This document shows, piece after piece, positions 1 to 28,373 of a stretch of 64,000 bases of DNA. The notes beneath the pieces were generated by a model. The model did no database searches. It saw only the letters and a program-made list of their open reading frames with translations, and was not told where the DNA came from. The DNA comes from Oikopleura dioica (lineage: Eukaryota > Animalia > Chordata): the NCBI GenBank assembly GCA_907165135.1, contig OU015568.1, forward strand, positions 15,015,208 to 15,079,207, read 5' to 3'. Both the position numbers and the translations under genes were made by a program. Within the stretch, counting starts at the first letter, position 1, and each line of letters begins with the position of its first letter.

Positions 1-1
1 T

Positions 2-2359
2 ATTTGCTTCGACTAACATGTACCCATTTGCGCGTTTGATGAAATTTATAAGTTTTGTATCGCCGCCAACGAAGTGATACAAAACTGACACCAATGTCGG
101 AAAGAGCACAACAATATCGTACCTCTCTCCAACCCAAGAATAGATTTTTAGCTTGAAAAAATCTTTCAAATATTTGAGCTTTTTTCGTAGACGCGCAGTG
201 TCGTGAATACTTGCTCCTTCTTTCTTGTTTTCGAATTCGATTTTTTCTTCGTAATGAGCAATACCGTCGACAATGCATTGTGGAATAGTGCGCGCCATGT
301 CTTGCTGTCTGCAGATCAAGTAATTTATAAACTCGGTAACCATCACTTCGCATGCTTCGTGTTCCATACCTCGGCGGACAAAGCATTGACGTTCACCTTT
401 ACTGGAATAAGTCGCTACCGATGTAAGACGATGAAACTTTACTCCCTCGGAATAGGGGCCATGCTGCATTAAACACTCAATATCAAAAGTGAGAAAGTAT
501 TCTTGAACATAATCAAAAGCCGGCAAAAATCCTTCTGCCACCAGTTCGTGTACATGATCCATAATTCCAGGCCCTTCTACAGTTTGACGAATAAAATCAA
601 TGGGTTCTGTTCGGCAAACACTCTCATGTTTTCGCATTTTTTGTTTATCAGAATGAGTAAACAAGCAGTTCTTTGTCTTGCACATCGCCAACTCTTTCAC
701 TTGTCGATCGGGGAGAATTCTAACAAGTGTTTCATCGTCGAATACATTTGGCGTCAAGCTCAACACATTACGAATAGGCTTATACTCCGCATACAAACTT
801 GCTTCGACACTAGAATCAGGTTCTAAAAATGGTGCATCGTCTTGTCGTTCTGCTGCCTCTTGCGCAGCATCATTTTCGTCGATCTCTGCTTCGTTCTCAT
901 TGTAATCATTGTTGTCATCACCAGCGCAACACTCATTATCCAGAAAAGGATTTCGATTAAAACTCTTTTCGGAAGTAGCATTTTCCGTCAATTTATCAAA
1001 ATCAAGAAACGAAACATCTGAGCTTTTTTCAGTATCTTGAGAATCAGTATCCATCGGTCGTGGAGCAAAACGTTCCATATCATGAATATCTTCGTGACAC
1101 GGTTCCGTTGCGTCGTGCAAATTGTGTTCCTCGTTTCCAGCCCACCGTAAAATTTGTGCCGCTTTCTTTTCAGTCATATATTGACTACAACGAGCGATGC
1201 GTCTCTGATAATCCATATTCGCCGAGTAAACAGGATAAATGCCTGGGTAATTTTCGAATTCGCGATATGAAATGTCCGTTAACTTTTTAAATTCGAGCGC
1301 AAACTCATCTTCTTGCATTGGGCCAACGAGTAAATTTAATATGATGCAATCAGGTGCACACTCTTTGGCGTAAATGCACGTTTTTAAATTTACATTGTCG
1401 TTAATAATTTTGCCAACAAATAAACGTATATTCACTTTATAACGCTGAGAGATTTTGTGCAAAACACCATCGGCAATAGTAAATTTTGTATTGAAAGCCA
1501 TTTCGCCAAAGAGCTCCTTTTTCATCTCAATTATTTTTTCCATACAAGCATTTTCGTTGTCGCAAATTGCTGGCCATTTTACACTTATGATTGCCCGCCA
1601 AAAACTCGTCCAGTTTTTCTGACGATCTTGAAATGTTCTGCGAGTTGGTAACAAGTGATAAGTTCCTAGGCGATAGAAGTATGGCCGTGCAGATTGAATA
1701 CAAATACACGGACGTACAGTCATAGGCGATGCATTTTCAAGACGAGTAATAATTTGTTGCACGTTTTCTCGTTCATCCATGGGCAAACGATGCGGCCGAT
1801 AACTAATTCCAAGAGGACTAAAAGCTCCTCCGTACAGTGCATAAATGTCGATTCCAAGTTTACGCTCCAATTTAGGCAGGACTGCGCGAGTAGGGCACGC
1901 CCCGAATTCTGCAACCAATTCTGCAGTGTCGACAGAGCTCAGTTGCTGACGTAACGCGCGGTTCATGGTAGTTGGCACTTTTGGGTAAATCGCTTTTAGA
2001 TGATTCCACCAATTTATACCCACAAGAATAACGTGGTAAATATTCGAGTGATTGCGTTCATCACAAGGATCTGCTGGCGAGTACTCAGGCTCATCATTTC
2101 CATCATCATCCTCCTCCTTAAAGATATTGCTACCTGTTTCTTCATCACTGCTGCAAACACTACTATCAAGGGGGTTTCTTTTTGGCTTAAAATTAGAAAC
2201 GCCCTCTTCGTCCTCGCTACTACTATTACGAATAACAATTGGATCTTTTGCGTTTTCTACAATCCGCTGATGGTTGGCATCAGATTGTAGATGTCTCCTT
2301 TTTTTTACGATTTCCTTCTTTGATAGACCTTTTGGCCTATTTGGCAAAAAACGTTTCAT
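2..2359 (-). CDS. Protein-primed DNA polymerase B (pPolB), N-terminal 786 codons; continues off the left edge
   Basis: Manual translation gives an uninterrupted frame from ATG 2359 (MKRFLPNRPK...) to the edge. It contains ExoI-like YFLTFDIECL, ExoII-like IYSWVGERYDIVVLF, then FIKRANGYMLVE, preceded by a C-x4-C...H...C motif (CKTKNCLFTHSDKQKMRKHESVC). It is missing from the ORF track because no stop lies inside the window. Confidence 0.9.
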   Translation of the reverse strand, partial: MKRFLPNRPKGLSKKEIVKKRRHLQSDANHQRIVENAKDPIVIRNSSSEDEEGVSNFKPKRNPLDSSVCSSDEETGSNIFKEEDDDGNDEPEYSPADPCDERNHSNIYHVILVGINWWNHLKAIYPKVPTTMNRALRQQLSSVDTAELVAEFGACPTRAVLPKLERKLGIDIYALYGGAFSPLGISYRPHRLPMDERENVQQIITRLENASPMTVRPCICIQSARPYFYRLGTYHLLPTRRTFQDRQKNWTSFWRAIISVKWPAICDNENACMEKIIEMKKELFGEMAFNTKFTIADGVLHKISQRYKVNIRLFVGKIINDNVNLKTCIYAKECAPDCIILNLLVGPMQEDEFALEFKKLTDISYREFENYPGIYPVYSANMDYQRRIARCSQYMTEKKAAQILRWAGNEEHNLHDATEPCHEDIHDMERFAPRPMDTDSQDTEKSSDVSFLDFDKLTENATSEKSFNRNPFLDNECCAGDDNNDYNENEAEIDENDAAQEAAERQDDAPFLEPDSSVEASLYAEYKPIRNVLSLTPNVFDDETLVRILPDRQVKELAMCKTKNCLFTHSDKQKMRKHESVCRTEPIDFIRQTVEGPGIMDHVHELVAEGFLPAFDYVQEYFLTFDIECLMQHGPYSEGVKFHRLTSVATYSSKGERQCFVRRGMEHEACEVMVTEFINYLICRQQDMARTIPQCIVDGIAHYEEKIEFENKKEGASIHDTARLRKKLKYLKDFFKLKIYSWVGERYDIVVLFPTLVSVLYHFVGGDTKLINFIKRANGYMLVEAN

Positions 2360-2504
2360 AAAAATTATAAAAAGTTACAACATTTATTTGAAACAGTTAT
2401 TTAAAGAGTCAGTACAGAGTTACCACTAACGCCGCCGAGTGTTTCTGTCCATATGCGCAGTGCGCCCCCCTTTGCTGTATTCTTGCCTTCTTGAGAGCGC
2501 TGTA

Positions 2505-4367
2505 TTAGTCCTGTCGGGGTCTCTTGACTCCAACTTGAACTTTTGATTCAACAGAACCAGAAATGTTTCCAACCGATACATCTGGCTTGGAAATACATCC
2601 AAGTACGGATTTTGAGACCACTGTGGCTTCTTAAAACTTTATAAGAATAAAGTAATTTACAAAAAGAATGTTACCGTTTCTTGACGCATCCAATATCAAA
2701 TTGTCCACTGGGAATTTCATCGCAAACGGGCACCAATTGTCCTCCAATCGATTTTTGAATGTTATTCGAACTTCAACAGTGCCCATCATATTCTGACGAT
2801 CACCAAAATACATCGGCACAAACCAGTTTTGTTCGCAAAACTGGAAGAAATCTAAACCCTCCCCTATTGACTTATTTGCATAACGACCATTATGCTGAAG
2901 AAAATTCAGATAATGATCTTGTGCGCTATTCCAAGGAGTACCATGAACATGTTGATTATCTACTAAAATTTCAAATTGTTGAATTTCAAAACCTGGTTCA
3001 AAAAGAGTTGTCCTTGTAATGCACCTATCATAAGAAGGCTCTTTACGACGTTCACTCATTCCCGTGAACATAATCATATCCGGAAAAAGGCCTCTTGAAA
3101 CCTCAATCACATAAGATGTATAACCTTTTGACCATGCTCCAACGCACAATCTCGGATTATAAAATGGTATTTTAGCTTGATGTTTACCAACGGAATACGG
3201 TTTTTCCTCTTTCTTGGGAGTGCAGAATACACTTTCAATCTGGACGTGCCTCAAGGTATCACTATCCAGTACAACTTCATTTCCTGTCTTCCTCCAGAAG
3301 CACGTATACTTGACATTGTCCTCCACTAAAGGTTCAAGTTTAGGGACCATGCGACATACCTTGTGAGCTCGCCATGTAGATTCTATTTTTGTTATATTCT
3401 TAGCCGAATCTGCTGCTCTCCCTCTGTAGTAAAGTTCGTGTTCCCTCGTTTTTGGGAGATAATCGCCGCCGATCCGTTCAATTGCAATAAACTCACCGCT
3501 TGTAAATTTTGATTTTTTACAGTCACAGTCATTCTGTGTCAAATGTTCCTTCCACTCTGGAATAAGCTGCAGATCCTTGGCGTAAGGATATTTCATTAAA
3601 TCCTCGTCCGGTTTATTATCCGCATCATACGAATAAAAATATTTTTCCAATGCGCGACATTTTTGATAGTCACCCCACTTCATTGTTGATCGCGCTCCAA
3701 CAGTTTCCTTTGTGTTGGTTAATTCAACTTCGAACTTGACTCTTGATCCAGATGGAAGCACTCGTGGTTGACGCGCCAAACCATGACTTATAGGAGCTCT
3801 TACCAAGTAACGATGATACAAAGTCTCATATGGAATCGTAGCTTGTGACGTTCCAATTGAACACTTGGTCGGCGAAGCAATCCAGTCCTCCAATGCGTAT
3901 TGTTGCCGATTTTCAACCAAGTTTTTATTGTTGTGTTTACACATTAACGTTAGCAATTGAGAAGCATCTGCATCGTAAGAATCAAAATGCCCTTCCGGAA
4001 ATAATTCAACTTCCTGAGCTTTTGGTGAATAATTTAATTTTTTAACAAAGTTGTTAAAAAACAAATATTCAAGCCCATCTGTCCACGTTTGAAAAATACA
4101 ATCATCCAATATGTAAAAATTGAATTTTTCAATAATCTTTGTAGAAAAGCCATTATCTGGAACGAAGTTGGAAGGCATGCTCATTTGAAATAGGATCATG
4201 CATCGATCAAGTTTAATTGGAAGTTTATCCGGAGGCATTGAGAACATAATTTTACTACCGGTATGGTTACCCACTGCCGACGTGTGTAGAATTTTGTACC
4301 CCGCATAAGGGTCCGAAGTTTTCTTTGATTTTTTCAAATAAAGTAGATTTCCGTAATTTTCATCCAT
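2505..4367 (-). CDS. Polinton double jelly-roll major capsid protein, ~605 aa (exons 4367-2675, 2629-2505)
   Basis: Motifs match the Polinton MCP pattern: FNNFVKKLNYSPKAQEVELFPEGHFD, PISHGLARQPRVLPSGSRVKFEVEL, GLFPDMIMF, FEILVDNQHV, GTVEVRITF...DNLILDASRN. A 45-nt GT-AG intron (2630-2674) adds a tail ending VKRPRQD. Confidence 0.85.
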
Positions 4368-4589
4368 ATTTCTAAAATACAAAATAAAAGTTAGTTTACC
4401 CTACAAACTTATTTCTTAAGAACATTGACAAAAATGGGCGGTAACGATTAAATTCCTTGACTAAAACACTTATATGAGCGTAGATGAGAGAGAAAATTAT
4501 TAATTGCGATAACAACAAAACAACAATCACAATACAAAAATAAAAGAGTTGTCTATCGACCGTATCAAAACAGTTGCACGACCTTCCCT

Positions 4590-4781
4590 CTAATAGCGGG
4601 CTCGTCGGCGCCGTCGTCGACGTCGACGTGGACGTCGTCGATGTCCTGCTCCTCTTGGTCGTCGAGTTTTCCTTCGCCGTCTGCGACGTTTCCGCGGTCG
4701 TTTGCGTAACGGTCGTTTTTTTGAAAAAAGATTTTGCAATCTGCTCAATCTTGGTTTTACAAGATATGAGCCAACTGCCAT
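4590..4781 (-). CDS. Arginine-rich protamine-like protein (63 aa), candidate virion core/DNA-condensing protein
   Basis: About half of the residues are R/K. Arg codons vary at position 3 (CGT/CGC/CGA/CGG/AGA/AGG), supporting this frame. It lies between the integrase and capsid genes, and TTTTAG directly precedes the ATG. Confidence 0.65.
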   Translation of the reverse strand: MAVGSYLVKPRLSRLQNLFSKKRPLRKRPRKRRRRRRKTRRPRGAGHRRRPRRRRRRRRRARY

Positions 4782-4822
4782 CTAAAATTAAGAAACTTTA
4801 AAATATACGCACATTTAAACTG

Positions 4823-6948
4823 TTATTGGTGGGAAAGTTCAGAAAACGGTATAACAAGGTTAAGTTCCGATTCGTAGTAACGCCGATCTAATCTTACGCC
4901 TTTAGAGTTAAGTATTGAAAATGTATAGACATAAGCCCCGTGATGAATTTGAGCGATTTGAAAAAGTTCTCGTGTCCACTTGGCAACCCCTCCTTTTTCA
5001 AATCGTTTTCGTTTTTTACGTGGAAGTCTTACGATATCTCCTACATGAAATTTGGTTTTTGTTTGGCGCTTATGGTTTCGTCGTTTACTCTCAAGGTATT
5101 GAAATAGTAGTCGTGCATTACCACGATGAACATCAGCAGGTTTCATATTTATCGCAGTGTGAACAGTATTATTAATGGCACTATTGACATCTTGTAAAAT
5201 CGGAACCCAACGTTTAACATTTCCTTGCGCTGTAAAAGCTCTTTCCAAACGCTCCTCCAACGTACGACTAAATAAAAGTTGAGTAAAAATAAAGTATTCA
5301 AAAATACTTACTTGAATCGTTCCACCATTGACGCTTTGTGAGGGCCCGTCATGTAAACACGTGTCATTCCCCATTCGAAAAGTAACTTTGAAACGGCTCC
5401 CTGAAATTCACCTCCCTGATCAGTACAAAAAAATGTATGACCAGGTAAGTCAAGAGTTTCGAAAATAGATCGCAAATTTTTTGCCGTTTCTGTTGAATCA
5501 TTAGTGATCATCTTACGCACAAAACTCTGCCGTGACAGAGCATCAACAACACACAAAATATACTTGTAATTATTATTAATCGGCCCATAATTTTTGTAAG
5601 CAACTATTGTATCTGCAAAAAGACTTGAATACAAATCCGGCGCAACTATAGGATTTCGAGTAAACCGAGTCCGAAGAGGTCGATGGAGTGAAATCGGTTC
5701 GTTCATGCGTTTAAACTTTTGTAAATCAAATCCGCTATAAAGTGTGGGCTGCGCTTTATTGTAAAATAAATCTATTGCAAATGGTGGGTTTTGTTGATTC
5801 TTACTGTTAATATCTTGACCAGAAGTTTGTTGCGGTATCGATGACTGGGGAGTCGCTGTCTGCGCTTGCGGATTGAGCGCCGGGCGAGGGGCTCCGAGAT
5901 ACGTCTCTATTTCGACGCCGTTTTCGGCCCCGTTTAGTTCGTTTAGCTGTGACAGGGGCTGGCTTTGGCTTGGGTTTAGGTACGGTAATGACGCTTCCAA
6001 CGGGGCCCTGAAAGCCCTCGCGTCGTCGTTTAAATTTGTGCGCCGGGTTCTCGACAATGACGGACTGTTCTCGGATGCGCTTTCGATTTCTTGTATTTTG
6101 TTTGCTAGGCTCGGCGAGCTGTTGGTCATAAGAATCGGCTGTTGATCCCTCATCGGTAAACGGTTCACCATCATCCGGCTGTTCACTAAATTCGGATTCG
6201 TGTTCGTTTGCCGGGGAAATCTGGTAACGATTAGCTCTTTTGGAAATTTTAGCTCGTTCGTTTGCGGATTTCTTGCCCCTATTAGCTGAGTTACGAATTG
6301 AATCCCGGAATTTTCGGAAATCATCGCTGGTGATAGTATAACCATCGGTTCCGGATCTTTTTGTCTTTTAAGTGGTCGCTGGTAACTCCTCGCATTTGAT
6401 TGACCTTCTTGCTTACTGTACTTGTCCACTGATCGAGTGTCCCTCCGCCTTTTTCTACTATTTGTCGATCGTCGGTTGTATTGAGCTGCGTCGTCGTTGG
6501 CACTTTCGGCATCGTCACTGTCGTTGTCTTCGTTGTTTTCATATTCGTCATCCGAGGCGACTTCGACGTCTCTGTAGTTTGCAACTTCGTCGTCGTAGTT
6601 GTCGACAAATTCGCTGCCGGTTTTGAGTTTCTTGCGTTGCGTGATTTCGCCTTCATCAGAGCTGCCTCTTTCTTCTTCCTCTGGGTCTCTTCCTTTTCTT
6701 TTTCTTGCCACTTTCTTTCCATTGCCGATAGGAATGGTTCTGTTGCATAGTCCCGCAACCAGCCTGGCTGTCCCCTCTTCCTCGGTATCATAATCTGGAT
6801 ACGGTTCTGCCTTCGTTTTCGGAGCCCTCACCCGTACTCTACTAGTCAAGGGATTAATCTCCCAAAATGAGCAAATATTTGACATTTGCGAAAGTGAAAA
6901 ATAACAGCCGCCATTTAAAGGAGCTTTACGCAAATCAATCGATTGCAT
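4823..6948 (-). CDS. Polinton retroviral-like DDE integrase with long N-terminal extension, ~693 aa (exons 6948-5312, 5267-4823)
   Basis: LHRPLRTRFTRNPI, LFADT, YILCVVDALSR and CTDQGGEF are present. Splicing the 44-nt intron 5268-5311 restores the canonical VERFNRTL. The C-terminus has FHVGDIVRL...W...F...YYESEL. Confidence 0.92.
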
Positions 6949-7200
6949 CTTTAATCAAATTATATATACCAAAGTAATTAATCATAATGCATAAAATATA
7001 AATTAAATTAAATTAAAACTTACCTTTTTTAATCTTCTGTTGTTTTTGTGAAAAGGTGTTTTTTCATCAATTTAAAAAGATTAACTAAAAGAAAAGGACT
7101 ACAGTAGCTGTTTTTATGCGCGGCTTACTAGCGCTCCAAGTGAGCTCAAGAATTTTGACTATAAATACGCCGTATTCGCTCGCCAAACCGCAAAATAGCA

Positions 7201-7608
7201 ATGCAGGCTCTTGAAGAGGAAGCAAAAAAAGAATTCACTGGATTGAAGCTTGAAGTAAAGTGCGTGACATCTTTTTCCCCTGAAAAGTACAATCTATTTG
7301 GAATTTTGCGACAGCACAAACTTGGCGACAAAAACTTTGTAGGCCAGGAACGGTTGGCGGATAATCACGAGATACAAATCGCATTCAGTCAGTTTCGCTG
7401 GAATTTGCAGGACACTGAGATCCGAGAGTATTTCCATTCGCCGACAGGACTTGCAAAAGACCTGAAAGATAAAACGATCGTCGTCTACGTGGACTCTTAT
7501 TCTCCACCGACAAACGCTGAACGAAAGAAGCCAGACTCTGTCTACGAAAGCGTTCCGAAAATCGAAGGAACCTACAACGGCCGATTCGTACGATGCATCA
7601 ACATTTAA
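7201..7608 (+). CDS. Polinton ORFan, 135 aa
   Basis: Clean ORF with TATAAATA at 7160-7167 upstream; overlaps the ATPase start by 16 nt. No family recognised. Confidence 0.6.
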   Translation: MQALEEEAKKEFTGLKLEVKCVTSFSPEKYNLFGILRQHKLGDKNFVGQERLADNHEIQIAFSQFRWNLQDTEIREYFHSPTGLAKDLKDKTIVVYVDSYSPPTNAERKKPDSVYESVPKIEGTYNGRFVRCINI

Positions 7609-8328
7609 CTAAATTTCTGCCCGATGTCCGGTTCAAGCACCCCTGTTCTCTTTTCATTGCTGGTTCAACCGGCACCGGTAAGTCTAACTTCATAAAAAAT
7701 TTAATTGAATGCGACGGGATAAAGGGAGGCATAGATGTTATTTACTACTTCATGCCCCGGCTTGAACCGATTCAAATTAGTCCGCTGCAAAATCAACAAT
7801 TATTTCTAATGGAAGGGCTCCCCACTCGTCAGTGGGTTGACGATACATTTAAAATCGGCTCCGAGATAAATAATCTTATAATTGTTGACGACCAATGGTC
7901 TGCATGTATTGAAAGCGATGTTGTTGAGTATTTACTAACATACGGTCGTAGGCATCTCGGGCTGAGCCTCATCTTCGTGGGGCAACATTTTTACGAAAAA
8001 TCTAAGAAAGCTATCACCCTCAGGTATTTATTAACATGTTGTTTTAAATTTAAAATGGTTAAAATCAAGAAATTGTATGACTGCCTTTGTGCTTATGCAG
8101 AATAATACCGACTGCGGTATTAATAAAACAGTTGCAACAAAGTGCGGGGAAGTCGAAGGTTACAATGCTGCAGTGAAATTATTCTCTCAAAGACGAATCC
8201 CCAACTATTTCTACGTAATAATCCTAAGGGACATTCAATACGCGGAACAACCGCGAGTAATGTCAAACTGCTTTGGAGAAGTACCTGGACTTGGTGGAGC
8301 ACCGTGGATATTTGGCCTGTCACAATAA
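7593..8328 (+). CDS. A32/FtsK-like genome packaging ATPase (exons 7593-8023, 8070-8328)
   Basis: DVRFKHPCSLFIAGSTGTGKS (Walker A), LIIVDD (Walker B) and GRRHLGLSLIFVGQ (RH/Q motif). A 46-nt intron (8024-8069) joins ...AITLR to NCMTAFVLMQN in frame. Confidence 0.92.
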
Positions 8329-8329
8329 A

Positions 8330-8391
8330 AATTTATTACACAACTGTAATTTATTACAAAACTGTAATTTATTACAAAACTGTAATTTATT
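8330..8391. repeat. 18-bp tandem repeat AATTTATTACAAAACTGT x3.5 between convergent genes
   Basis: Direct reading. Each junction forms the quasi-palindrome TGTAATTTATTACA and gives AATAAA on the minus strand. Confidence 0.85.
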
Positions 8392-8430
8392 TTATGACAT
8401 GAAACAGAAAAGAATAAAAAAAACAGCAAA

Positions 8431-9475
8431 TCACATAAATTGGCATGGTCCTTCTTTAGGAAGTCTTCGTTTCTTGCAGACATTTTGCCCAGGACAGCAG
8501 ATGCAACGTCTTTCAACCATGAAGGAGCGCAGTTTGAGATGAGAACAACGATGATCGAAAAGCGGCACCACTTCTCCTAAACACACATTAGAAATAAATT
8601 TTTTAAAATGACTTACGTTTTCGCTCAAGCGGTCGAAACCAATACTCTTTCAGCAAGTCTTCATATTCTCCGAAAATTTTTCCACATTCTGGCGCTCTGT
8701 ACAAGAACATTTCTGTGGAAATGTGTTGAAAATTAACCATCGAGTCAGTCATTTTAGAAATATTGTACTCATTTGCTGGAATATTGGAGAAGTCGAGAAT
8801 GGCTGCAATCTCCTTGTTGATTGCACTTGTACGTACAGTAGGATCGTCAATTGTTGAGAATCGGACATTTTTGAGCAAAAGTCCGCGAACCCAGCTTTGC
8901 GCATAAGCAATAAACAAGGCACGTTCACAAGCAAACGAAACCTCAAATAGATTCAGCCGTTGAAAAAAGTAGCGAAGGTTTGGATACTGAACGCATTGCA
9001 GAGTGCACTTTAGGGAATTTTTCTTCTCGTGAGTAGGTGTCCAGATAAATTCGCGGAAAACAGTGCCACCATTCATCCGCTTGAATCCAAAGTTAAAAGA
9101 CCCATTGCGCGTTTGTGCCTGCATGTATTCATGAAATGGAAACATCTTTTGCGAATCGTTCTGACTGCCGTGAAACACACAATTTGGACCTTCAGCGACT
9201 AAAACTCACCTAAGACAGCTAAACAAAAAGCAAGAAAACTTACCGTTGTCCTCAACCGTGCGAATAACTACAGAAGATGTTTTCTTGCCTGTCTCTTTAT
9301 CGACGGTTTCTTTGATGAAAAACGAAATTTTTGATTTGACATAATCAAAGGCGGAACAAGGATAAAGGTATAAAACTGGCTGCTCTTTTTTAAATGTATT
9401 ACGACAGGTTTGAACAAGCGGAAATGAATACGAATGCCTGTGTTGATCTCTTTCAATTTCAAAGATTTTTTTCAT
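8431..9475 (-). CDS. Polinton accessory protein, family A copy 1, ~319 aa (exons 9475-9244, 9198-8617, 8576-8431)
   Basis: GT-AG introns of 45 and 40 nt join three ORF pieces in frame. Paralogous to 9562-10716 (GPxCxFH, YPNL, RxLFxxYAQxWxRxxLxKNxRFxT). Confidence 0.75.
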
Positions 9476-9561
9476 CTTTTATTTTGATTTTAGAGAGCAG
9501 TGAGTTGACAGCGAAAATTTAACTGTTGATGCTATGAACTTGTGGCGTCGCTGAAGAGTCA

Positions 9562-10716
9562 CTAAATAAAAGTTTTAGAAATAAGAAAATTATAATGGCG
9601 CCACCGTGGAATCGTTACTGATCGAACAGGAGTGTAGCGGAATGGAGTGTTTACAACTTCGCCAGGAAGTCGAATTGGATTGTCTTGATTTCGGGCAGAA
9701 ATATCAAGATCCTTTACCTCCTTCAGTGGATTATAGAATCGGTTGAATAATGGCAATTGATCATCCGCGTTGTTTTCCAAGAAGAAAGGCTGAAACTACA
9801 AAAATAAATTTTATTTTGTTCGAGAAACTTTTCATCTTACACAAACGTAATTGTTTTTCCTTGCATGTTCCTCAAGCTTCTTCATGTAATTCACCAACGC
9901 TTTCTTGCTACCGAAGAAAGGCATTTCCTCGAAAATAGCACCGTAATACTTGTTGAAAACGTGTGAGCTCAATCGTCGAACTTTTTCATTAAAACCAACG
10001 TAAATGGCTCGACACGTGGCCAAATGATAAAGAAAAAGATCTTTTGGAGCCTTAAAAATATTGATTTCATCATCCGGCACTCCGATCGAACGTAGCACAT
10101 CATGAATATATGAATCGATCGCTTCGTGGTTGATCGCAAAGTTTGAAGTCCTGAATCGTGGGTTCTTTTCCAAGCGAGATCGTGCCCACAGTTGTGCGTA
10201 CAATACAAATAACACTCGGAATGGTAGCTCAGAATGATTGTGGGGCGCGAATTCTCGAAAAAGTTTTTTCAGATTCGGGTATTTGATTTTTTGATTACAA
10301 ATCGGTTGAGGGTCAATTGCACGATTGTACGTTATTTCTCGCACCGTCTCCTCCCAAAAGATATAATGTCGAAAACCCACATAAAGGGAGTCCCTATTGA
10401 TCTCTTCGTTGATTGTCATTCCGGCCAAATACGGAATATAAGCGTCTAAACGGCAGTTGTACATTGAATGAAAATCGCAGTACGGCCCTTGATCAAGTGT
10501 CTGTTCTTCTTGAGTAACTCGTACAGATTGCTCAAACTCTTTGGTTTCAGAATTGAAGACTGTCTCGACATGAAATTTGATTTTGACTCGGCGTCGGATT
10601 TTTCCACGGCATCTTACAATCTGCAAAATTCGATTTCCACGAGGAGGATAGCAAATCTCAAAAAAAGGAAAGGTGACCTCGCTAGTGTCAACAAAATCAA
10701 GCTCTTTAATCAACAT
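9562..10716 (-). CDS. Polinton accessory protein, family A copy 2, ~369 aa (exons 10716-9841, 9795-9562)
   Basis: Long ORF plus a 45-nt GT-AG intron (9796-9840). Shares motifs along its length with copy 1. Confidence 0.75.
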
Positions 10717-10953
10717 TTTACAAAGTAAGTGAAACTATTTTACGTTCAATCAAGACCCACTCGCCTCGGGGGCGCCGTCAAGTGACATGACGTTTAGTCA
10801 AGTTTTTCTAGAACACGGACGATGATCATTGTTGTTTTTGGCGCTCAATATTATCGCAAAAGAGGATGATAAATCTTGAATATTTTGGGACATGTATAAA
10901 AGGCGCGTTTGATGCTAGTTTAGTTAGATTTTTATAAATCCCGACAGGATAAA

Positions 10954-11139
10954 ATGGCCGGTCAAATACACGTCCATTCACTTGGCATGCTTCAGGAATT
11001 TGTACTTGAAATAAACGAATTCTCGCAGCAGGTTTACCAAGCTGCAAATGACGAATTCGATCTTACGGTGGAAGAAGTTTTGCCCAGAATTACTCCGGTA
11101 ATATTGAAAATAAAAGCGCTAATTAAATATGATAGATAA
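10954..11139 (+). CDS. Small helical ORFan (61 aa)
   Basis: TATAAAAG at 10895-10902 upstream; amphipathic-looking sequence; its stop overlaps the next start (TAATG). Confidence 0.45.
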   Translation: MAGQIHVHSLGMLQEFVLEINEFSQQVYQAANDEFDLTVEEVLPRITPVILKIKALIKYDR

Positions 11140-11330
11140 TGACACGAGTAGCCGTAATTGAGCACTGTTTTACTCACTGCAGCTACTGGGCGAATCTCAC
11201 CCAAAATCCAACGGTAACAAATTTGAAAGAAAAAGTAACCCAACTTTGCGACAACGTACGAATCATTATCAACGACCATTTGCTCGATGGCGATTCATCA
11301 TCTTCCGACGGCTCCGAACACTCAATTTAG
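11139..11330 (+). CDS. Small ORFan (63 aa) with acidic/Ser tail
   Basis: Starts in the TAATG overlap with the previous ORF; followed by a UTR-like tract containing AATAAA. Confidence 0.4.
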   Translation: MTRVAVIEHCFTHCSYWANLTQNPTVTNLKEKVTQLCDNVRIIINDHLLDGDSSSSDGSEHSI

Positions 11331-11498
11331 CATCAAGACTTCTACTCGACCACTCACTTATCTCTCTCACTTTCCTATCTCTCACAACCCATTATCTCAC
11401 CGCATGTACTCACTCTCACAATAAAGACAAAGATAAATGTACAAATTATAAGAAATTTTATTTGCAGCTATTTTCAGCGCAGGAATAAATGAAAAAAA

Positions 11499-11520
11499 AG
11501 CTTTCTCGCGAGAGAAAGCT
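11499..11520. terminator. 9-bp stem hairpin AGCTTTCTC-GCGA-GAGAAAGCT between convergent genes, with a T-tract on the minus strand
   Basis: Perfect inverted repeat read directly, 8 nt after the stop of the minus-strand gene. Function is inferred only. Confidence 0.35.
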
Positions 11521-11528
11521 TGAGTCCA

Positions 11529-12258
11529 TTAGTTGTCCTTCCATCCATCCCCCTTGAAACTGAAAGCGCGACCGTTCTTGGTCAAAAACATAAATTTGAC
11601 CTTGGACTCGACGAGATCGCGCCAGAGGTTGTTGAAGCGACGGTTGTAGGTGTCCTCGATCTCCCAGGCGCGACGCTTGATGATTTCCTTGTCGCGGGCG
11701 CAGAGGTCCTGGGTGAGCATCCGAACGATCAGCTCAGTGGTGGGCTCCCCCTTGAAGTCCTTTTGATACACCGGCTCCGGTGCCTCAACGGGGACGGTTC
11801 GTGCTAAAATATAAATAAATAAATAAAAATCAACATAAGAAAAATGAACTTACAGGTACCAGGCGGGGGCGCCTGCTCCTCTTCGGTGCCGGATCGGCGA
11901 GTGTTCTTGGCGGCGGGGGTCTTTTTCCAGATCTTCATCTTGTCGACCAGTTTTTCGCCGCCGCCTCGTGAAGTTTCCACAGATTCGATGGATGACGTTT
12001 CGGAGAGCCCATCGGACGAGGAGGACGAGAAGAGCTCGGTCGAAGAGGTGGCTTCGGCGAGAGCGTGCTTGGCCTCCTTCAAGTGCGCCTCGGTCTCCCG
12101 GATTGCCTTTTGAAGGGTGGTTAGCCGAGCGGCAGCGCTTCGTGTTCTCTAGAATTATTTGTTTGATCATTTCAATTTCTTATAGAATTACTCTAACTCT
12201 ATTAATTATTATCTATTAATCAAATTATTTATGCGAGAACCCAAGTACTTACAGTCAT
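11529..12258 (-). CDS. Three-exon accessory protein, ~191 aa (exons 12258-12253, 12148-11854, 11803-11529): coiled coil, Ser-rich linker, helical C-terminus
   Basis: GTAAGT donors and TAG acceptors give a continuous frame MTRTRSAAARLTTLQKAIRE...WKDN; strong C/G third-position bias. Confidence 0.7.
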
Positions 12259-12377
12259 GCCGAAAAAAAGCCGTTTGCGTCTTCTCCCTTCGGTGAACAA
12301 CTCAAGACTGACAAATTTTTAATTTTTGCAAGTCATAAACATGTGTTCTAGAGATTTCGAATTCCTGGAAAAAGGAC

Positions 12378-12432
12378 GTTCGAGAGAGAAAATGCATGTT
12401 CGAGAGAGAAAATGCATGTTCGAGAGAGAAAA
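12378..12432. repeat. 20-bp tandem repeat GTTCGAGAGAGAAAATGCAT x~2.8 in a divergent intergenic region
   Basis: Direct reading. Confidence 0.85.
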
Positions 12433-12585
12433 ATAAAATGTTCTCGAGAAACTACTGTTTAGCCCAAGATCTAATCCAAAGTATGAAAAATCATACTGCC
12501 TGGCATTAAGCACACGTGGAGACGGAGGAAATAAAAAAGAGGCCGGATTAATTTTAAATCATTCTTTTCCGTAAATCGGGAGAAA

Positions 12586-13140
12586 ATGGGAGATCGTTCA
12601 ACTGAGCCCCCAATAGAAACTAAACGAGCGATTGAAAAGGAAGCTAAGGAAGGTCCAATAGCTCCTATTGAAACTTACTATGAATATCTCGATTTTGTCG
12701 AAGATAGCATCGGCAAAGAGCCGCGGCGATTTATTCCAAATGAAAACAATCGGCTGTGGCAAGCCGAGGGTGACCCATATCTTTACCCAGCAGCTTCGCT
12801 GAATGAGGCGATTACACGCGCAAATCTTCCATATAGTCGCAAAATGAAAGAAAAGCTAAAACACGGTATGGAATATGATCGTGGACTTATAATTTTTAAT
12901 AAACATCATTATAATTATATTTCCTACAACATCAACAACGATCCTCTGCTAATTGGTGTTATTCGCGAGCTGCGGACAACTACAGAAATGCGGATGCAAG
13001 AAGAAAAACGCCGCGCTCTATCATCTGCAGAATCGGAATCGAACTGCAGCAACTCAAGCTCAGACGACGACGAGAAAAACAAGACGCGAATTACGTGTCC
13101 AAATACTCCTGGTACTGAGAAAACAACAAAACATGAATAA
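12586..13140 (+). CDS. Polinton ORFan, 184 aa, acidic C-terminal tail
   Basis: Long ORF with protein-like composition; no family recognised. Confidence 0.65.
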   Translation: MGDRSTEPPIETKRAIEKEAKEGPIAPIETYYEYLDFVEDSIGKEPRRFIPNENNRLWQAEGDPYLYPAASLNEAITRANLPYSRKMKEKLKHGMEYDRGLIIFNKHHYNYISYNINNDPLLIGVIRELRTTTEMRMQEEKRRALSSAESESNCSNSSSDDDEKNKTRITCPNTPGTEKTTKHE

Positions 13141-13544
13141 ATGTGTCTGTACTCTTTATTGCTTGTCTTTTGCGCCGAAACAAGTTTATCAAGAGGCAGA
13201 TTATCGGGATGGAAAGAGGCAAGAAGGTCGTAGATTTTGCGTTTGAGTCGGGTGAGTCCTCGCTGTACTTGATCGCGTTGCTGCAAGCATTTTCCCATTT
13301 TGGTGCGAATCATTTGCAACATTTGCGGTCGTTTGTAGTTGCATGGGTGAGCAGGCGAGTGGTGACGGTAACTGTCCCATTTGAGAAATCGCTTTTTCCA
13401 CTTTTTCAGCGTGATTTCGTTTTCTTTGAGGACCGCTTCAAGAATTTCAACTTGACGTAAAAAGAGACTAAGGGTTGGAGACGATGGACAGCACCACGAA
13501 TCGCCCTTGCAAAAATTTTGAGTATTTTCAAAAGTGATTTTCAT
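12924..13544 (-). CDS. Polinton ORFan with two coiled-coil-like segments (3' end uncertain)
   Basis: Open frame with helical heptad-like stretches; CCGTATTTAT motif ~30 nt upstream. The last ~70 codons overlap the opposite-strand ORF, so the true 3' end may differ. Confidence 0.5.
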   Translation of the reverse strand: MKITFENTQNFCKGDSWCCPSSPTLSLFLRQVEILEAVLKENEITLKKWKKRFLKWDSYRHHSPAHPCNYKRPQMLQMIRTKMGKCLQQRDQVQRGLTRLKRKIYDLLASFHPDNLPLDKLVSAQKTSNKEYRHIYSCFVVFSVPGVFGHVIRVLFFSSSSELELLQFDSDSADDRARRFSSCIRISVVVRSSRITPISRGSLLML

Positions 13545-13681
13545 TCTTATTTTTGAAGAGCGAGAGCGTAATATAAATACGGACGCTCAGCATGTGCATT
13601 TACGTTTTTCGATTAACGATCAATCTGCAAAAGTCAATTATGAAAGGCAGCTCCCACAGAGAGAAAAATCAATTTTCAAAT

Positions 13682-14059
13682 TTATTTTTTATCAGGCAGA
13701 AGAATGCTTGGGGTCGCATCAAGTGCATTGAAAATGTAGAGCTTTGAATTGTCAGGCCAGATGCACTCGTTGAAGCCCATGATCTCGAGTTCCTTGATGT
13801 AGTGTCGTTGAAGAGCGCAGATCGGATTTGGGCAGAAACAGTTGCCCAGTATTTTGACCACATCGTAGCCCGATTGAGTGATCCAACCTTGACCTCCAGA
13901 GGGTGGGCGAACAAAGCCAGTAGAATCTAAAACAGTGGCAAAATCACGAGGATGCTGGAGCCATTCTCGTGCCAAGACAGCCAACTCAGGGTGACTTTTA
14001 TCGACGATTTTTTTGACCGGAGGCCAGTAGGACAGTTTAGGTTTTTTACGTTGATTCAT
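13682..14059 (-). CDS. Accessory family B copy 1 (125 aa)
   Basis: Shares ELxxLA, GF, TQxGxD(V/I)(V/I)xI, C-x4-C and (W/Y)Pxxxx IF with 14098-14631 and 16460-16855. Confidence 0.75.
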   Translation of the reverse strand: MNQRKKPKLSYWPPVKKIVDKSHPELAVLAREWLQHPRDFATVLDSTGFVRPPSGGQGWITQSGYDVVKILGNCFCPNPICALQRHYIKELEIMGFNECIWPDNSKLYIFNALDATPSILLPDKK

Positions 14060-14097
14060 TCTGAATAATTTTTCTATTTTATTTACGAGAAAAGAGT

Positions 14098-14631
14098 TTA
14101 TTTTTGGAGCTCTTTTGGAACTCGCTTGTTATCAGTGCATTGAGTAGCGTAGAAAATGTACAGTTCTTGTGGATAATCAGGAGAGTGCACATTTTTGTCA
14201 CAGCTAAAAGAAACGCCTTGAATCCATTGATGTTTGAGCTCGCATATTGGATCGCCGCATGAGCCATCTTCGAGAATTTGAATAATGTCGAGGCCTTCTT
14301 GGGTGACTGTAGGAATGCCATTTTTATCCAATGTAAAGCCCTTTTCATGAATGACTCCTTCGTAATCTTCGTAATTGCTACTGTAGTGATCGGCAAGGAC
14401 TCGTAGCTCATCGTGGTTTCTTTCGAGGAGAAGATTGTCATCTATAATGCGCATTGGGCTCTGGGGAGGCTCGCCCGCAGTAGAATTGGCGTCCTCCTCG
14501 ACACCATTGTCGTTGTTGTTTTCATCGCGAGGATTCATTTCCAAAGACTGGCTGCCTGGCTGCTCGTCTTTGGTTAGAGCTGGAAGTTTTGGCTGCTGCT
14601 GCTGCTTTTCGATTGGTATATGATCGCTCAT
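14098..14631 (-). CDS. Accessory family B copy 2 (177 aa, acidic disordered N-terminus)
   Basis: Family B motifs; TATAAAAA at 14668-14675 (minus strand) upstream. Confidence 0.75.
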   Translation of the reverse strand: MSDHIPIEKQQQQPKLPALTKDEQPGSQSLEMNPRDENNNDNGVEEDANSTAGEPPQSPMRIIDDNLLLERNHDELRVLADHYSSNYEDYEGVIHEKGFTLDKNGIPTVTQEGLDIIQILEDGSCGDPICELKHQWIQGVSFSCDKNVHSPDYPQELYIFYATQCTDNKRVPKELQK

Positions 14632-14667
14632 GCCAATGAAATTGAATTCTAGCGATTCAAACGTCGC

Positions 14668-14675
14668 TTTTTATA
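14668..14675 (-). promoter_or_regulatory. TATA box (TATAAAAA) upstream of the family B pair
   Basis: Canonical sequence ~36 nt upstream of ATG 14631. Confidence 0.55.
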
Positions 14676-14990
14676 CAGTATCATCATCCATCTAGTGGCC
14701 GGCTTATTGAAAGGCCCAAGTTATACTACACCAGTATTTTATATATACTGAAAATGTTCTTGAACTTAGAATCCCGGGCGGCAGCGGCGGCTGCGCATAA
14801 TAACATGTGCAGCTCATCATCATCATCATTATGGTCAATTAAGCGCTAATTAACAGCAACCCTCTCAAAATCAGCTTGCACCCTGCTCGCCGCGGCGCTG
14901 TTCTTATCACCTGTTACACCGTATTTATGCGCGAAAGAAACGCTACCTGTCATCAAAATCAAATCAACAAAACAAGAAGAAAAGAAGAAG

Positions 14991-15248
14991 ATGTTCAAAA
15001 AGATGCTCAAGAAGATGTTCAAGAAGATGCTCAAGAATATTTTCAAGAAGCTGCTCAAGAAAATGTTTAAGAACATCCTCAAGAAGATGTTCAAGAAGAT
15101 GCTCAAGAAAATGTTCAAGAAAATAATGACAGCAATTCTTTTTGTTGCTGCTGTTTGGCTTGGACTTTTTCTTAAAAACGTTGTAATCTATCTGTTTATA
15201 GCTTTTTGGGTAGTTGTAACTTTTTTCATGATTACTGCCCTTATGTAA
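14991..15248 (+). CDS. Small membrane protein with cationic (KKMF/KKML)n repeat and two hydrophobic segments (85 aa)
   Basis: 12-bp tandem repeat whose variation falls mostly at third codon positions in this frame, followed by ~40 hydrophobic codons. The upstream region is homologous to that of 16094-16240. Confidence 0.55.
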   Translation: MFKKMLKKMFKKMLKNIFKKLLKKMFKNILKKMFKKMLKKMFKKIMTAILFVAAVWLGLFLKNVVIYLFIAFWVVVTFFMITALM

Positions 15249-16093
15249 ATTAGAAAAAAAACTCACTGTACATTTTTGAACATATGCATTTTTGAACATT
15301 TTAATCACTGTACATTTTTTCACTGTAAATATTTTATTCATCTCATTAAATCATCAGAATTGTATTTTAATAATTTCCTTCTCAAAGCATTTTTTGATAT
15401 GAATTTTGAATTCATTTTAGCACAGTAATAAAAATTTTGTTTGACAACCTTATAAGCTTTATCATTTACATTCATTTTGCCTCATTTTATTTATTTATTT
15501 ATTTATTTATTTATTTTAACGCTTGATTTTCAAAGGACTTTCTGACGTTACTCTCGATTTCATTTTAAAACAGTAATAATTTTGTAAAAACAGTTTTATT
15601 TCAGAGAATGCTGGCTTCACTGGTTATTCGACTTGTCGCTCTTCATTTTAAAAAGAATATTTTTCGTATGGCTACAGGAACTTGCTCATCAACATGCATC
15701 TCGTTTCATTTTGGAAATGAGGAAAAAGTAAGTGAGAAAGTTGATTCAAAAACTATTGCTTACGAGCGCTTTTAGTGGAAAATAGTATTTTCGATTTTCT
15801 AAGCCAGAAAGTATTGACGTAATGATTGATTAAATTTTACTTTTTCAACCGTAAATTTTGGTTGACCTAAAAGTTTTCTTATCGCATCTCAATAACCCTA
15901 ATTAGCAGCGTGATATGCTGATTGCATGCACCTTGTTAATGAAGATTGCTAGAACCTGGAGTGAGGGTAGCGGCGGCGCGTTTCGATCACCTGCTCAACC
16001 ATATTTATGCGAAGCAAAAACGGTACTCTTCATCAAATTCAATTAACTGTTTTTAGCAAAGAAGAAAAAGAAGCCCAAAGAAGAAAGAAGAAG

Positions 16094-16240
16094 ATGATCA
16101 AGTTTATTGAAGGTTTTTGTCATCATATCATCTACTTGTATATTACCATGGCAATTGCATATATTTTTGCCTTTTTTATTGCTTGCACATTGATTACCAC
16201 TTCACTGTATACTCTTGTAAATATAGTTTCATTTTTATAA
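16094..16240 (+). CDS. Small hydrophobic membrane protein (48 aa; frame also open from 16007), probable paralog of 14991-15248
   Basis: Same AAGAAGAAG-ATG context and a conserved upstream block (TCACCTG...CC(G/A)TATTTATGCG...CATCAAA.TCAA); long hydrophobic stretch. Confidence 0.45.
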   Translation: MIKFIEGFCHHIIYLYITMAIAYIFAFFIACTLITTSLYTLVNIVSFL

Positions 16241-16459
16241 ATTTTTTAGTTTACTTTTTAGTTTTCTTTTTAGTTTTCTTTTATGATTTCACTAGTGAAA
16301 ATATGCTACTGGAATTGCTAGTGCGGTGTGGATAGTAAACTTGAGTTGCTCAAAAGCAACTCAATTAAAAAACTTGTTAAACATTTAACAACTTTTATTT
16401 TTATGGTTTTTTAAAATTTTTTGTAGAAGTAGCAGCAGCGAGTTTTAAAGAGAGACAGA

Positions 16460-16855
16460 TTACTGATTTGGCAAAGTCCACTCCGCAGGAAGTCGTTCTT
16501 TTGGCGTTCGATCAAGCAACTTGAAAATGGTCATATCCTCCGGGTAGTGGTATTCTTCGCAGGGTTGGTAAGCGTTGCAATCAATCAAGTCCATCAAGTA
16601 TTTGTGCTTGAAGCGGCAAAAGTCGCTTGAGCAAGAATTGTCGGTGACTATTTGAATTATGTCAAAGCCCGGCTGAGTGACTCCCTCGTTGACGCCAGAG
16701 TATTTGAATCCAGTTTTTGTCAGAATCTCATCACGAGCGTTTTCATCAGCTAAAAGAGCTTGAGCAATTTTGTTGAGCTCTTGGCGACTCTTGAGAACGT
16801 TCACTTGGACATCTTTGTCATCGTGTCCATAACAGCAGGAGAAGCCAGGACACAT
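16460..16855 (-). CDS. Accessory family B copy 3 (~131 aa, from MCPGFSCC)
   Basis: Family B motifs. A 42-nt GTAAGT...TTAAG 5'UTR intron (16859-16900) ends 3 nt before the ATG. Confidence 0.75.
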   Translation of the reverse strand: MCPGFSCCYGHDDKDVQVNVLKSRQELNKIAQALLADENARDEILTKTGFKYSGVNEGVTQPGFDIIQIVTDNSCSSDFCRFKHKYLMDLIDCNAYQPCEEYHYPEDMTIFKLLDRTPKERLPAEWTLPNQ

Positions 16856-17228
16856 GATCTTAAAACGGAATAAAAATCGAAAATGGCACATGGAACTTAC
16901 GGTAACGTAAAAATAGACAGCTCAAATGTCAGAGCAGCGGTGGAATATATAGTCGAGATAATCCCCTCCGGGCGCGGTGGCGGCGGGGCCCAGATGTGTG
17001 GCGGAGCACTGGCACATCCGCGACTCTCGCTTCAAGCCAACAGATCAGTTTGGACTTTTTCACTTTTGAAAGCACAGCAACTTCTTTTTTCTTTATTTTT
17101 GTTGAGTCGAAGAACCATAAACCTAAAATATGATTAGTTGAATGTATAAATATGTAAATATGTAAATAAATTGAATTTTAATATTTTATCAATTTAGTAT
17201 GGAAAAATCGAACTAACACTAATTATGA

Positions 17229-17301
17229 TTCATCCCTTTTTGGGTTCATCCCTTTTTTGGGATCATCCATTTTTTGGGTTCATCCCTTTTGGGTCATCCC
17301 C
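17229..17301. repeat. Subterminal ~16-bp tandem repeat TTCATCCC(T)nGGG x4.5, probably within the right TIR
   Basis: Direct reading; each unit contains a CCC-Tn-GGG mini-hairpin; ~145 bp from the element end. Confidence 0.8.
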
Positions 17302-17430
17302 ACCATGAGTACATTGCAGTCTGAAGAGCAAAACCAGGCCAGAGAGCCGCCTCGGGCCGTGAGTGCCAGGGAACAGTGATCCATTTTCATCAGCCAATGA
17401 GCGACAGAGAAAAACGCCTGAACAACAGTC

Positions 17431-17451
17431 ACTACTATAACTACTAGCGAA
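17431..17451. other. Polinton right terminus ACTACTATAACTACT (17431-17445) and predicted 6-bp TSD AGCGAA (17446-17451)
   Basis: Polinton termini are typically AG...CT with short (AGT)n repeats and 6-bp TSDs. The matching left end is not in the window. Confidence 0.7.
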
Positions 17452-17634
17452 TCCCTTATCTTGACAAGAAGATTAATCATAAAACTGCTGACGATCTTCA
17501 AAGATGGAATGGATGAGAGTAGATTTAGCGCCTCGGTCGTCTGAGGCGCGCTCCACCAGGTGTCGAGCCGAGGCTTTAAATTCGCGAAGGGGTCAGCTTG
17601 AAATGCATTCAAACAAATCGAGCTAGTATAAAAT

Positions 17635-18549
17635 ATGAACATTCAAACTGCGATTTCTTTCCTTTTTGTTCTTGTTTGCACATTCGCGGTTGTTTCCGGC
17701 GCTCGAGCAGTTCCATTTCTTTTCAAGGTATGGCTTTATAATAACAACTGATTTTTGAAGAGATATTATTAAAAAAATAGCTTTTATTTGAAGAAATTGA
17801 ATTAGTTAACGGAAGAAAATTCTTGCTTCTATATTTTTGGCCATTGTTACAAAGTTCACGCCAAAACTAAATGATCGTTATTACTGTAAGATTGCGGAAG
17901 GCGGTCCCATCTAAGCTTGCTTGAGCCTCAGATTAGACGGAAAACTCTCCACAAATCCACTTCGATACCAATCTTTACAGTTTTAACCCGCTTTAAAGCA
18001 TAAGAGAGTGTTTCGAACTCAGCAGAACTCGAAAAATCTGGCTGGCCGGAACTCAGAATAATCTCACTGACCTTTTAAAAGTCGTTTTTGCATTTGTTTT
18101 GCGCCTGTAAAGAGCCACAAACTCGATTTTAAACGTCATTGAGCAATATTTTTAACCTGACAAGAATGGATCACATGATTATGAAGGAAAATCTACAGGT
18201 TGCTACATATCTAGACATCAAGATGGAACATATTCTTAGGAATTAAATGCTGAGCCGAATATGATATCTTATCTGCTAGATTTCATTTGCTTATTTTAAC
18301 TATATTCCTCGATATAGATAGATATGTGTTCGAACTTTACCCCTTCAATTTTAATCTAGATCACTGTCTTATTTTGACAGCCCGTTCATATATTGTCAAA
18401 TATAGCCTTGAATAGTTAATAACATGAATTTTCAGAGAAGCCCGAATTCGGCATTCACTGGAGAAACTGAAGACGGCAGCTACCTCCCATTTCTCCTCAA
18501 TCGACCTCGCTTCGAAACCCGCGGAAGAGCTGTTCCCTTCCTTTTTTAA
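17635..18549 (+). CDS. Putative neuropeptide precursor, 68 aa (exons 17635-17727, 18436-18549), encoding AVPFLF twice
   Basis: Signal peptide MNIQTAISFLFVLVCTFAVVSG, then R-AVPFLF-KR (KR formed across the GT-AG junction), an acidic spacer, LPFLLN-R, and RGR-AVPFLF-stop. Confidence 0.75.
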
Positions 18550-18833
18550 TTCATCATCTGAAGAGCTTCACATCCAGAGTTTTTAATATTTTGACACTTT
18601 CTTGTTATCATGCGGCTCTCAAAATAAATAAACAAAAAATGAAACAAAAAAAGGACACTTTGAAAAATAGCTGAATTTACGAGTTTTGGAGACAAGCAAG
18701 AGTAGTGATTTACGCTATCGTATTAATGCTGAGCATAATGTAAATTTGCTTGAATTTGGGGAAGAGATAAGGAAGACCGCGCGCGTCAGAAATTCATCAT
18801 TCATTTCTCAAGGAGAAAGAGAGAGACTGAGAA

Positions 18834-26000: not shown

Positions 26001-26117
26001 GATACTTTCCGCTGAAAAACACCTTTTGAACAACGGCTTTCGCTTGCTATCTTACCTATCGATCATCTTCTCAAGCCAAGGGCGAAGTTTTCGAGGGTGT
26101 CTCTCATCGTCTGACAT
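23068..26117 (-). CDS. Interferon regulatory factor, IRF4/8/9-like (DBD + linker + IAD), multi-exon
   Basis: Exons 26117-26056, 26011-25900 and 24368-onward give LRPWLEKMIDSGKYPGLYW...FRIPWKHAGK...KAWAEHRGKY...TWKTRLRCALNKLPD (five Trp). The C-terminus matches the IAD (FSVKYFGKEV..CRL, YRLSKCRIF, KLSQLEV, VYFGQ). Last exon boundaries are approximate. Confidence 0.9.
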
Positions 26118-26864: not shown

Positions 26865-27211
26865 TTAATTTTCCGCTTGCTCGCTCTTGGGAACGACCAG
26901 TTGTTCCAGCTTGTGGCCCTTAGCTTCCAGCTCGGCTCGGAGCTAGACAAAATGCTGATGACTTTTTTGATTTCCGTTAGTTGATCAAACCTGAATGGAG
27001 AAGTCGTCTTCAATATTGTCATCTTCCCAGTTCTCTTCCCAGACTTCATCGACCTTCTCGTCTGAATAAAAATTAACAACAGATCTAAAAAGATCATCTC
27101 ACCATCGTTGACTTGCTTCCAGTCTTCAGCAGGGAATTCCTCGAATTCGTCATCCTCTTCGAGAACTCCGAGATCGTGTTGCTTCTCAACCTTGAGCTTC
27201 GAATCGGCCAT
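26865..27211 (-). CDS. SEM1: 26S proteasome subunit SEM1/DSS1 (3 exons)
   Basis: DLGVLEEDDEFEEFPAEDW ... [24 protein letters not shown]. Confidence 0.95.

Positions 27212-27455: not shown

Positions 27456-28373
<918 letters not shown>

Follow-up and report, generated by a model that had tools for sequence, protein, structure and literature searches.

In the chordate Oikopleura dioica, operons are resolved by trans-splicing of a spliced leader (SL). The genes of these operons lie on the same strand within ~60 nucleotides (nt) of one another (PMC6389100, PMC7986045), and the SL is added at AGs that are unpaired and usually have A as the next base (PMC6389100). Operons have been predicted by gaps of ≤60 nt measured between genes (PMC7986045), whereas the gaps given here run from stop codon to ATG. 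Paired acceptors favor cis-splicing, upstream cistrons often lack AATAAA, and the first gene is not necessarily trans-spliced (PMC1488885). The present study concerns a 64,000-nt stretch of O. dioica DNA (GenBank assembly GCA_907165135.1, contig OU015568.1, forward-strand positions 15,015,208 to 15,079,207), hereafter the window, whose first part, from position 1 to ~17,400, is part of a Polinton. Its genes resemble host operons in these features, and a block encoding an integrase, a core-like protein, a membrane protein and the major capsid protein (MCP) is probably transcribed as one RNA that is resolved by the host SL at unpaired acceptors. Unlike host operons, this unit lies in a virus-like mobile element and has overlapping genes in two frames, and its SL joining is a prediction.

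Polintons (Mavericks) and adintoviruses share with the window element a type B DNA polymerase, an rve integrase, a packaging ATPase, a double-jelly-roll capsid protein, a basic core-like protein and an animal chromosome as their location (PMC8502044). They differ from it in that the window element has at least 12 inferred introns, two-frame overlaps and operon-like acceptors; the string "splic" does not occur in the main text of PMC8502044. Host SL addition to the mRNA of a mobile element is known for the C. elegans retrotransposon Cer1, but Cer1 is a long terminal repeat (LTR) retroelement with one 5' site, whereas the window element is a multi-gene DNA element with internal cistrons (PMC3315495). 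In the same host as the window element, Tor retrotransposons also express a downstream structural gene, but they do so by long-range cis-splicing (Tor3a) or from an internal promoter (Tor3b/4b), and the account consulted reports no leader joining (PMC4402516). Our literature search, which did not extend to papers behind subscriptions (among them the original Oikopleura SL paper), found no report of operon-type SL resolution of Polinton genes.

In the adenovirus major late unit, core and capsid genes form one array with an acceptor before each ATG, and one shared cis leader is required. The window element is similar in its array of core and capsid genes with acceptors before ATGs, but its leader donor is paired with a nearby acceptor and is not found everywhere: a strong leader donor was found in two of the three loci with the region, and none serves the gene at 14061 or a post-polymerase gene of a related locus. 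A preceding sequence-only reading had proposed that either the host SL or an adenovirus-like leader of the element itself resolves its transcripts. This proposal is partly supported, in that the host SL fits best and the adenovirus-like branch is weakened.

Results

Acceptors before downstream start codons

The central part of the block is on the minus strand. The integrase gene (4823..6791) is followed by a 41-nt intercistronic gap (4782..4822), which ends in an unpaired acceptor, TTTTAG/A (score 9.6). Directly behind it starts an arginine-rich core-like protein of 63 amino acids (aa) (4590..4781), with counterparts of 50-70 aa in five relatives. A membrane-protein (TM) open reading frame (ORF) of 128 codons (4396..4782), with one hydrophobic stretch, occupies the -1 frame of core. 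Then follows a 24-nt gap (4372..4395) that contains an ACTAAC, which we take to be branch-point-like, and ends in the unpaired acceptor TATTTTAG/A (score 10.3); the ATG of MCP (2505..4367) lies 4 nt further on. The 220 nt before MCP are thus coding, as the TM ORF, and the real gap to the MCP ATG is 28 nt. The sequence-only reading had pointed to three such acceptors, and all are present: TTTTAG/ATG at 4782/4781, 41 nt past the integrase stop; TATTTTAG/AAAT ATG at 4372/4367; and AATAAA...TTATTCAG/A ATG at 14061/14059, 38 nt past the stop of a paralog.

Eight related loci (L001-L008) were fetched. L002 (a duplicate of L001) and L004 (a duplicate of L006), 100% identical over the first 180 MCP residues, were left out of the counts. 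The counted loci represent four lineages with 36-55% capsid identity; L003 is without a core start. Splice sites were scored with a matrix built from 49 hand-curated introns (26 from elements, 23 from the host), whose assignment is based on reading frames and homology rather than RNA. The set of 15 downstream starts comprised six core and seven MCP starts, window 14059 and the post-polymerase gene of L007.

An acceptor scoring ≥4 within 25 nt of the ATG was found at 15/15 downstream starts, compared with 2/17 other starts and 28/92 (30%) ATGs of AT-rich background. The difference between downstream and other starts is significant (Fisher p=2.4e-7), with the qualification that the sites depend on one another and that the cut-off of 4 was chosen once the scores were known; by our own arithmetic, counting some nine sites as independent against a background of 30% still gives roughly 2e-5. 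In all 15 of these tightly packed genes the acceptor lies 0-20 nt before the ATG. Shuffling gave single-site p-values of 0.004-0.37 (≤0.05 in 5 sites of the 15), so single sites are weak and support for the acceptors rests on their recurrence across loci. This recurrence does not reflect bulk identity: between loci, only 17-30 letters agree in the 60 nt that precede the MCP acceptor.

Other properties of these sites were also examined. The AG is directly followed by A in 11/15 acceptors but in 19/49 cis introns (binomial p=0.007 for sites that are not independent). Stop-to-ATG gaps span 1-73 nt across block loci and are ≤60 nt in 13 of the 15 cases (41, 28 and 38 nt in the window). A TATA-like site 22-65 nt upstream was seen at one of the 15 downstream starts versus 5/17 other starts, and neither core nor MCP of the window has one in that interval. 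AATAAA or ATTAAA occurs within 60 nt of 7/15 acceptors versus in 7/49 introns and often overlaps the stop codon; it does not separate the models. That neither 4782 nor 4372 has an AATAAA does not speak against SL joining, because upstream cistrons in Oikopleura lack it (PMC1488885).

No acceptor precedes the starts of the polymerase, the ATPase or the TATA-headed genes, so the pattern attributed earlier to the element genes does not extend to all of them. The three acceptors at 4782, 4372 and 14061 are real, i.e., not due to chance but part of a conserved layout. Conservation across four lineages likewise supports the polycistronic arrangement with unpaired acceptors that had been read from the window, although that reading overlooked the TM ORF and the overlap of the integrase with a further ORF (ORF A).

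Donor sites upstream of the acceptors

Between the upstream stop and the acceptor, no GT is present in 8/15 cases. The best donor 34-60 nt upstream scores ≤4.1 in all 15; real donors have a median score of 7.5, and three paired donors in 5' untranslated regions (UTRs) score 8.4-11.6. The 49 curated introns measure 34-104 nt, and those of the host 34-70 nt. Stronger donor-like sites 61-120 nt upstream (score 7.2 in the integrase of the window, 6.1 in both L003 and L005) are inside coding sequence and not conserved. The earlier statement that the gaps lack a donor is accurate for credible donors but not literally, as weak GTs occur in the window before 4782 (4820, 39 nt, score 0.9; 4812, 31 nt, 3.0), before 4372 (4408, 37 nt, 3.9; 4399, 28 nt, 1.7) and before 14061 (14086, 26 nt, 5.0).

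At its 5' end the block has a non-coding exon (7024..7085, minus strand), with a TATA-like CATAAAAA at 7118, a further acceptor at 7085 and a 12-codon upstream ORF from ATG 7067. The GTAAGT donor at 7023 had been described as that of a non-coding exon upstream of the block and a possible leader. The donor behind this exon is there (score 11.6), but it is paired with TTAAAG/ATG directly before ATG 6948, forming a 75-nt 5' UTR intron (6949..7023). It has a counterpart in L001 (2299, score 8.9) and no credible one in L007 (≤3.7). A second leader intron, of 44 nt (7128-7085), is an unproven candidate: its donor scores only 2.5, and no locus shows a clear equivalent.

Two-frame overlaps

ATG 6948 opens ORF A (5807..6948, minus strand), which has a conserved LNGGCY start and NFW end and overlaps the integrase ORF in another frame. 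The integrase contains a 44-nt intron (5311-5268) common to L001, L005, L006 and L007. The long different-frame overlap of ORF A (332-402 aa) with integrase exon 1 (450-523 aa) is conserved across lineages (window 6948-5807 / 6791-5311, minus strand; L001 2368-3366 / 2510-3862; L007 1843-3051 / 1976-3547). The N-terminal domain of ORF A is conserved; the protein as a whole matches no known family, and a family search with the ORF A N-terminus and with an ORF at 9832-10716 gave no usable family.

The TM ORF has counterparts in six relatives and is open from the acceptor in 6/6 loci; the probability of such openness by chance is 0.007-0.037 per locus by synonymous re-draw and 0.03-0.28 by codon-order shuffle. 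In L006-L008 it has its own intron of 42-46 nt, and in L005 an ATG overlaps the core stop (TAATG).

On the plus strand (region 7201..8328), a divergent, TATA-headed ORF of 135 aa extends over the beginning of the packaging ATPase gene (ATG 7593, intron 8024-8069), with no acceptor before either ATG. In 3/3 loci the ATPase ATG is located inside the last codons of the preceding ORF, without an acceptor (window 7593-7608; L001 1708; L007 1202), which points to reinitiation or leaky scanning. A GTAAGT at 7679 was rejected as a donor, as it sits in the Walker A codons of the ATPase.

A proposed model of SL-resolved transcription and its alternatives

We propose that transcription of the block would start from a promoter near 7100-7170 and yield one transcript to 2388. 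The paired introns 7023-6949, 5311-5268 and 2674-2630 would be removed by cis-splicing, and the SL would be joined at 4782 (core) and 4372 (MCP), as well as at 14061 in a separate two-gene unit (14631/14059). Second frames (integrase, TM ORF, ATPase) would be reached by leaky scanning or reinitiation. AATAAA 2388 would mark the 3' end of the block, and the polymerase would have a promoter of its own. The same single rule of SL joining would also apply to the gene at 14061 and to the post-polymerase gene of L007, both of which have acceptors and no non-coding leader in their units.

Several observations weigh against this model. The strongest loose end is that the TM ORF has no early ATG in the window, L001 and L005: the window copy has none before the hydrophobic stretch, the first Met is codon 26 in L005, 78 in L001 and 119 in the window, and only L006, L007 and L008 have an early one. 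An SL exon would not supply a start for this ORF, but a coding cis exon could. The donor of the integrase intron is in phase 2, the phase that the main acceptor needs in 4/6 loci. Since this coding donor could supply the TM ORF start in those loci, trans-splicing and cis-splicing may both make use of the acceptor at 4782. Furthermore, 5/49 real donors score <4.1, and GA donors are outside the scoring matrix, with a 44-nt GA-AG pair possible at 4415-4372. An in-frame GT-AG pair of 49-51 nt spans the integrase stop in L006 and L008 (score 4.1), and the automatic O. dioica model P0016 is fused across this stop in the same way. The ORF A and integrase frames swap at ~6320-6370 in the window copy relative to L001 and L007; because its integrase is thus frameshifted, the copy may be defective or mis-assembled and perhaps silent. 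Finally, no RNA record was listed for 2400-12300, and four of six RNA runs (X1, X3, X4 and X6) placed 14-89 reads each on 1000-18560, none ≥95% alike (a different lineage); RNA depth was confined to host exons beyond 17400 and is uninformative on expression of the element, at which no junction was observed.

Long-range cis-splicing, in which an upstream donor (the 7023 leader, in adenovirus-late style, or 5311) is joined alternatively to 6949, 4782 and 4372 with a common 3' end at 2388, is in line with the conserved AATAAA after MCP, with 7023 being the strongest donor of the block (11.6; 8.9 in L001) and with a TM ORF that lacks its own early ATG in three loci. It also has a precedent in the Tor3a env mRNA of O. 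dioica, which is formed by long-range cis-splicing from the LTR with a GA donor (PMC4402516). Nevertheless, we consider it unlikely: 7023 has its own acceptor 75 nt away, the leader region of L007 has no donor >3.7, neither 14061 nor the post-polymerase gene of L007 comes with a non-coding leader, the upstream ATG of the leader would come before the capsid ATG, and introns here measure 34-104 nt. Internal promoters within the upstream coding sequence, each with a short 5' UTR intron behind it whose donor is weak or non-canonical (for MCP, GT at 4408, 37 nt, or GA at 4415, 44 nt), are a more doubtful explanation. An ordinary 5' UTR intron that reaches up to the ATG is indeed present in two genes of the element (7023-6949 and 16900-16859), and CATATAA occurs at 4476. 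Tor3b/4b env is driven by an internal promoter (PMC4402516), cryptic internal promoters occur in host operons (PMC6389100), and GA donors are found in ~12% of host introns (PMC4122922). However, no donor or TATA-like site occupies a conserved position across loci, 8/15 gaps contain no GT, and the candidate donors are inside coding sequence at differing distances.

The acceptors could also end ordinary introns that remove upstream stops and fuse integrase, TM ORF and capsid, or be unused AT-rich sequence. In-frame GT-AG pairs (L006 541-589, L008 152-202, window 4408-4372, L007 4500-4564), the fused model P0016 and the modest single-site shuffle p-values are in line with this view. On the other hand, the acceptor-to-ATG distances before MCP (1, 4, 5 and 8 nt) place the acceptors in different phases, the MCP N-terminus and all core ORFs retain a Met, the donors are weak and not conserved, and 15/15 acceptors contrast with the 30% background. 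We regard this explanation as very unlikely, and resolution of the block by the host SL remains the reading we favor.

Identity of the element

The window element is a Polinton on the four hallmarks tested (polymerase, integrase, capsid and ATPase). The DNA polymerase B gene (1..2388, minus strand), with AATAAA at 2388 followed by ATG 2359 without an acceptor before it, runs off the window. Its ORF (2-2359) is 42-49% identical to an L007 ORF that matches DNA_pol_B_2 above the cut-off (E 2.7e-15); the window part, which is only the N-terminal 786 aa, has no Pfam match of its own. The integrase matches Pfam rve (E 5.8e-5, 23.7 bits), but its domain is divided by an intron, which keeps the score under the curated cut-off; relatives carry PF00665. 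The packaging ATPase matches Pox_A32 (E 3e-4) and Adeno_IVa2 (E 7e-4), both under the cut-off, and is 62-73% identical in L001 and L007.

The predicted structure of MCP, a double jelly roll (pLDDT of 71), has mavirus, Sputnik, nucleocytoplasmic large DNA virus and adintovirus capsids as its top matches, with E to 1e-13. The MCP ATG coincides with the conserved N-terminus of the capsid protein among relatives, AATAAA after MCP is conserved among loci, and a 45-nt intron near the C-terminus (2674-2630) is common to relatives. The named capsid relatives are from O. dioica; none were found in the viral contigs searched, and no spliced (RNA-derived) MCP C-terminus was present among the non-NCBI cluster members examined.

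In the visible element (window 2630-16900) we count at least 12 inferred spliceosomal introns of 38-104 nt, and those of integrase, MCP and ATPase occupy identical codon positions in relatives with 36-55% capsid identity. The element runs off the window, and no Pfam match to a maturation protease or minor capsid protein (penton) was found among the 12 ORFs scanned. Only one element end is inside the window, possibly at ACTACT (17445), presumably an end motif.

Other genes of the element and its host setting

The acceptor at 14061 belongs to a family of three minus-strand paralogs (13682-16891), an unnamed cysteine-containing family with only six representatives in 1.84 billion proteins. A 177-aa gene (14631-14098; region 14098..14675, with TATAAAAA at 14675) is the head of a likely two-gene unit. 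It is followed (13682..14097) by the 38-nt gap with two AATAAA and the unpaired acceptor TTATTCAG/A (14061, score 5.3), and by the 125-aa paralog at ATG 14059, which shows 30% identity to the upstream paralog (E 8e-15). The third paralog (16460..16951) has its own TATA-like site (16951) and a 42-nt 5' UTR intron (16900-16859). The intron ends 3 nt before ATG 16855, and the ATG-adjacent acceptor is here an ordinary intron end. In L007 (12433-12484, plus strand), a gene 50 nt past the polymerase stop starts TTTCTGTAG/AATG, a second possible operon junction.

Two small hydrophobic ORFs (14900-15250 and 15980-16240, plus strand) are located behind duplicated promoter-like stretches; the first contains a 12-nt repeat encoding (K/N)MFKK/KMLKK units. 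Tandem CATCCC-T-tract repeats and the possible element end (17228-17445) directly precede a host gene; the RNA runs show expression and splicing of its first exon.

Host genes at 26000-37500 are tightly packed, with AG/A before ATGs. The acceptors noted there earlier, TTTATAG/AATG at 32072 and TTTTGTAG/AATG before 36081, are both present. As for the names PIGN and MRPS2 given to these genes, a Pfam scan of first exons did not confirm them, although exon 30650-31624 has a PIGN-domain relative. Inserts bounded by inverted repeats were observed at 32644-33978 (101-nt perfect arms) and 56678-57714 (184-nt arms, 92%) and are probably similar to miniature inverted-repeat transposable elements; the former seems to break up one of the host genes in the operon-like run.

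Discussion

Introns and two-frame overlaps explain why automatic gene models of such elements (e.g., P0016) are fused or truncated. If the proposed mechanism is correct, a DNA virus-like element uses SL trans-splicing for a multi-gene structural operon, which goes beyond the capping of a single message as in Cer1. It would show adaptation of an element to operon-bearing hosts, and the element would be limited to hosts that have a leader. Capsid translation would also become subject to the growth control that has been reported for SL-capped O. dioica mRNAs (PMC6883708). A whole lineage of larvacean polintoviruses may express its virion genes in this manner, i.e., as SL-resolved operons with two-frame messages, and its capsid production would then be tied to the SL small nuclear ribonucleoprotein and to mTOR nutrient control.

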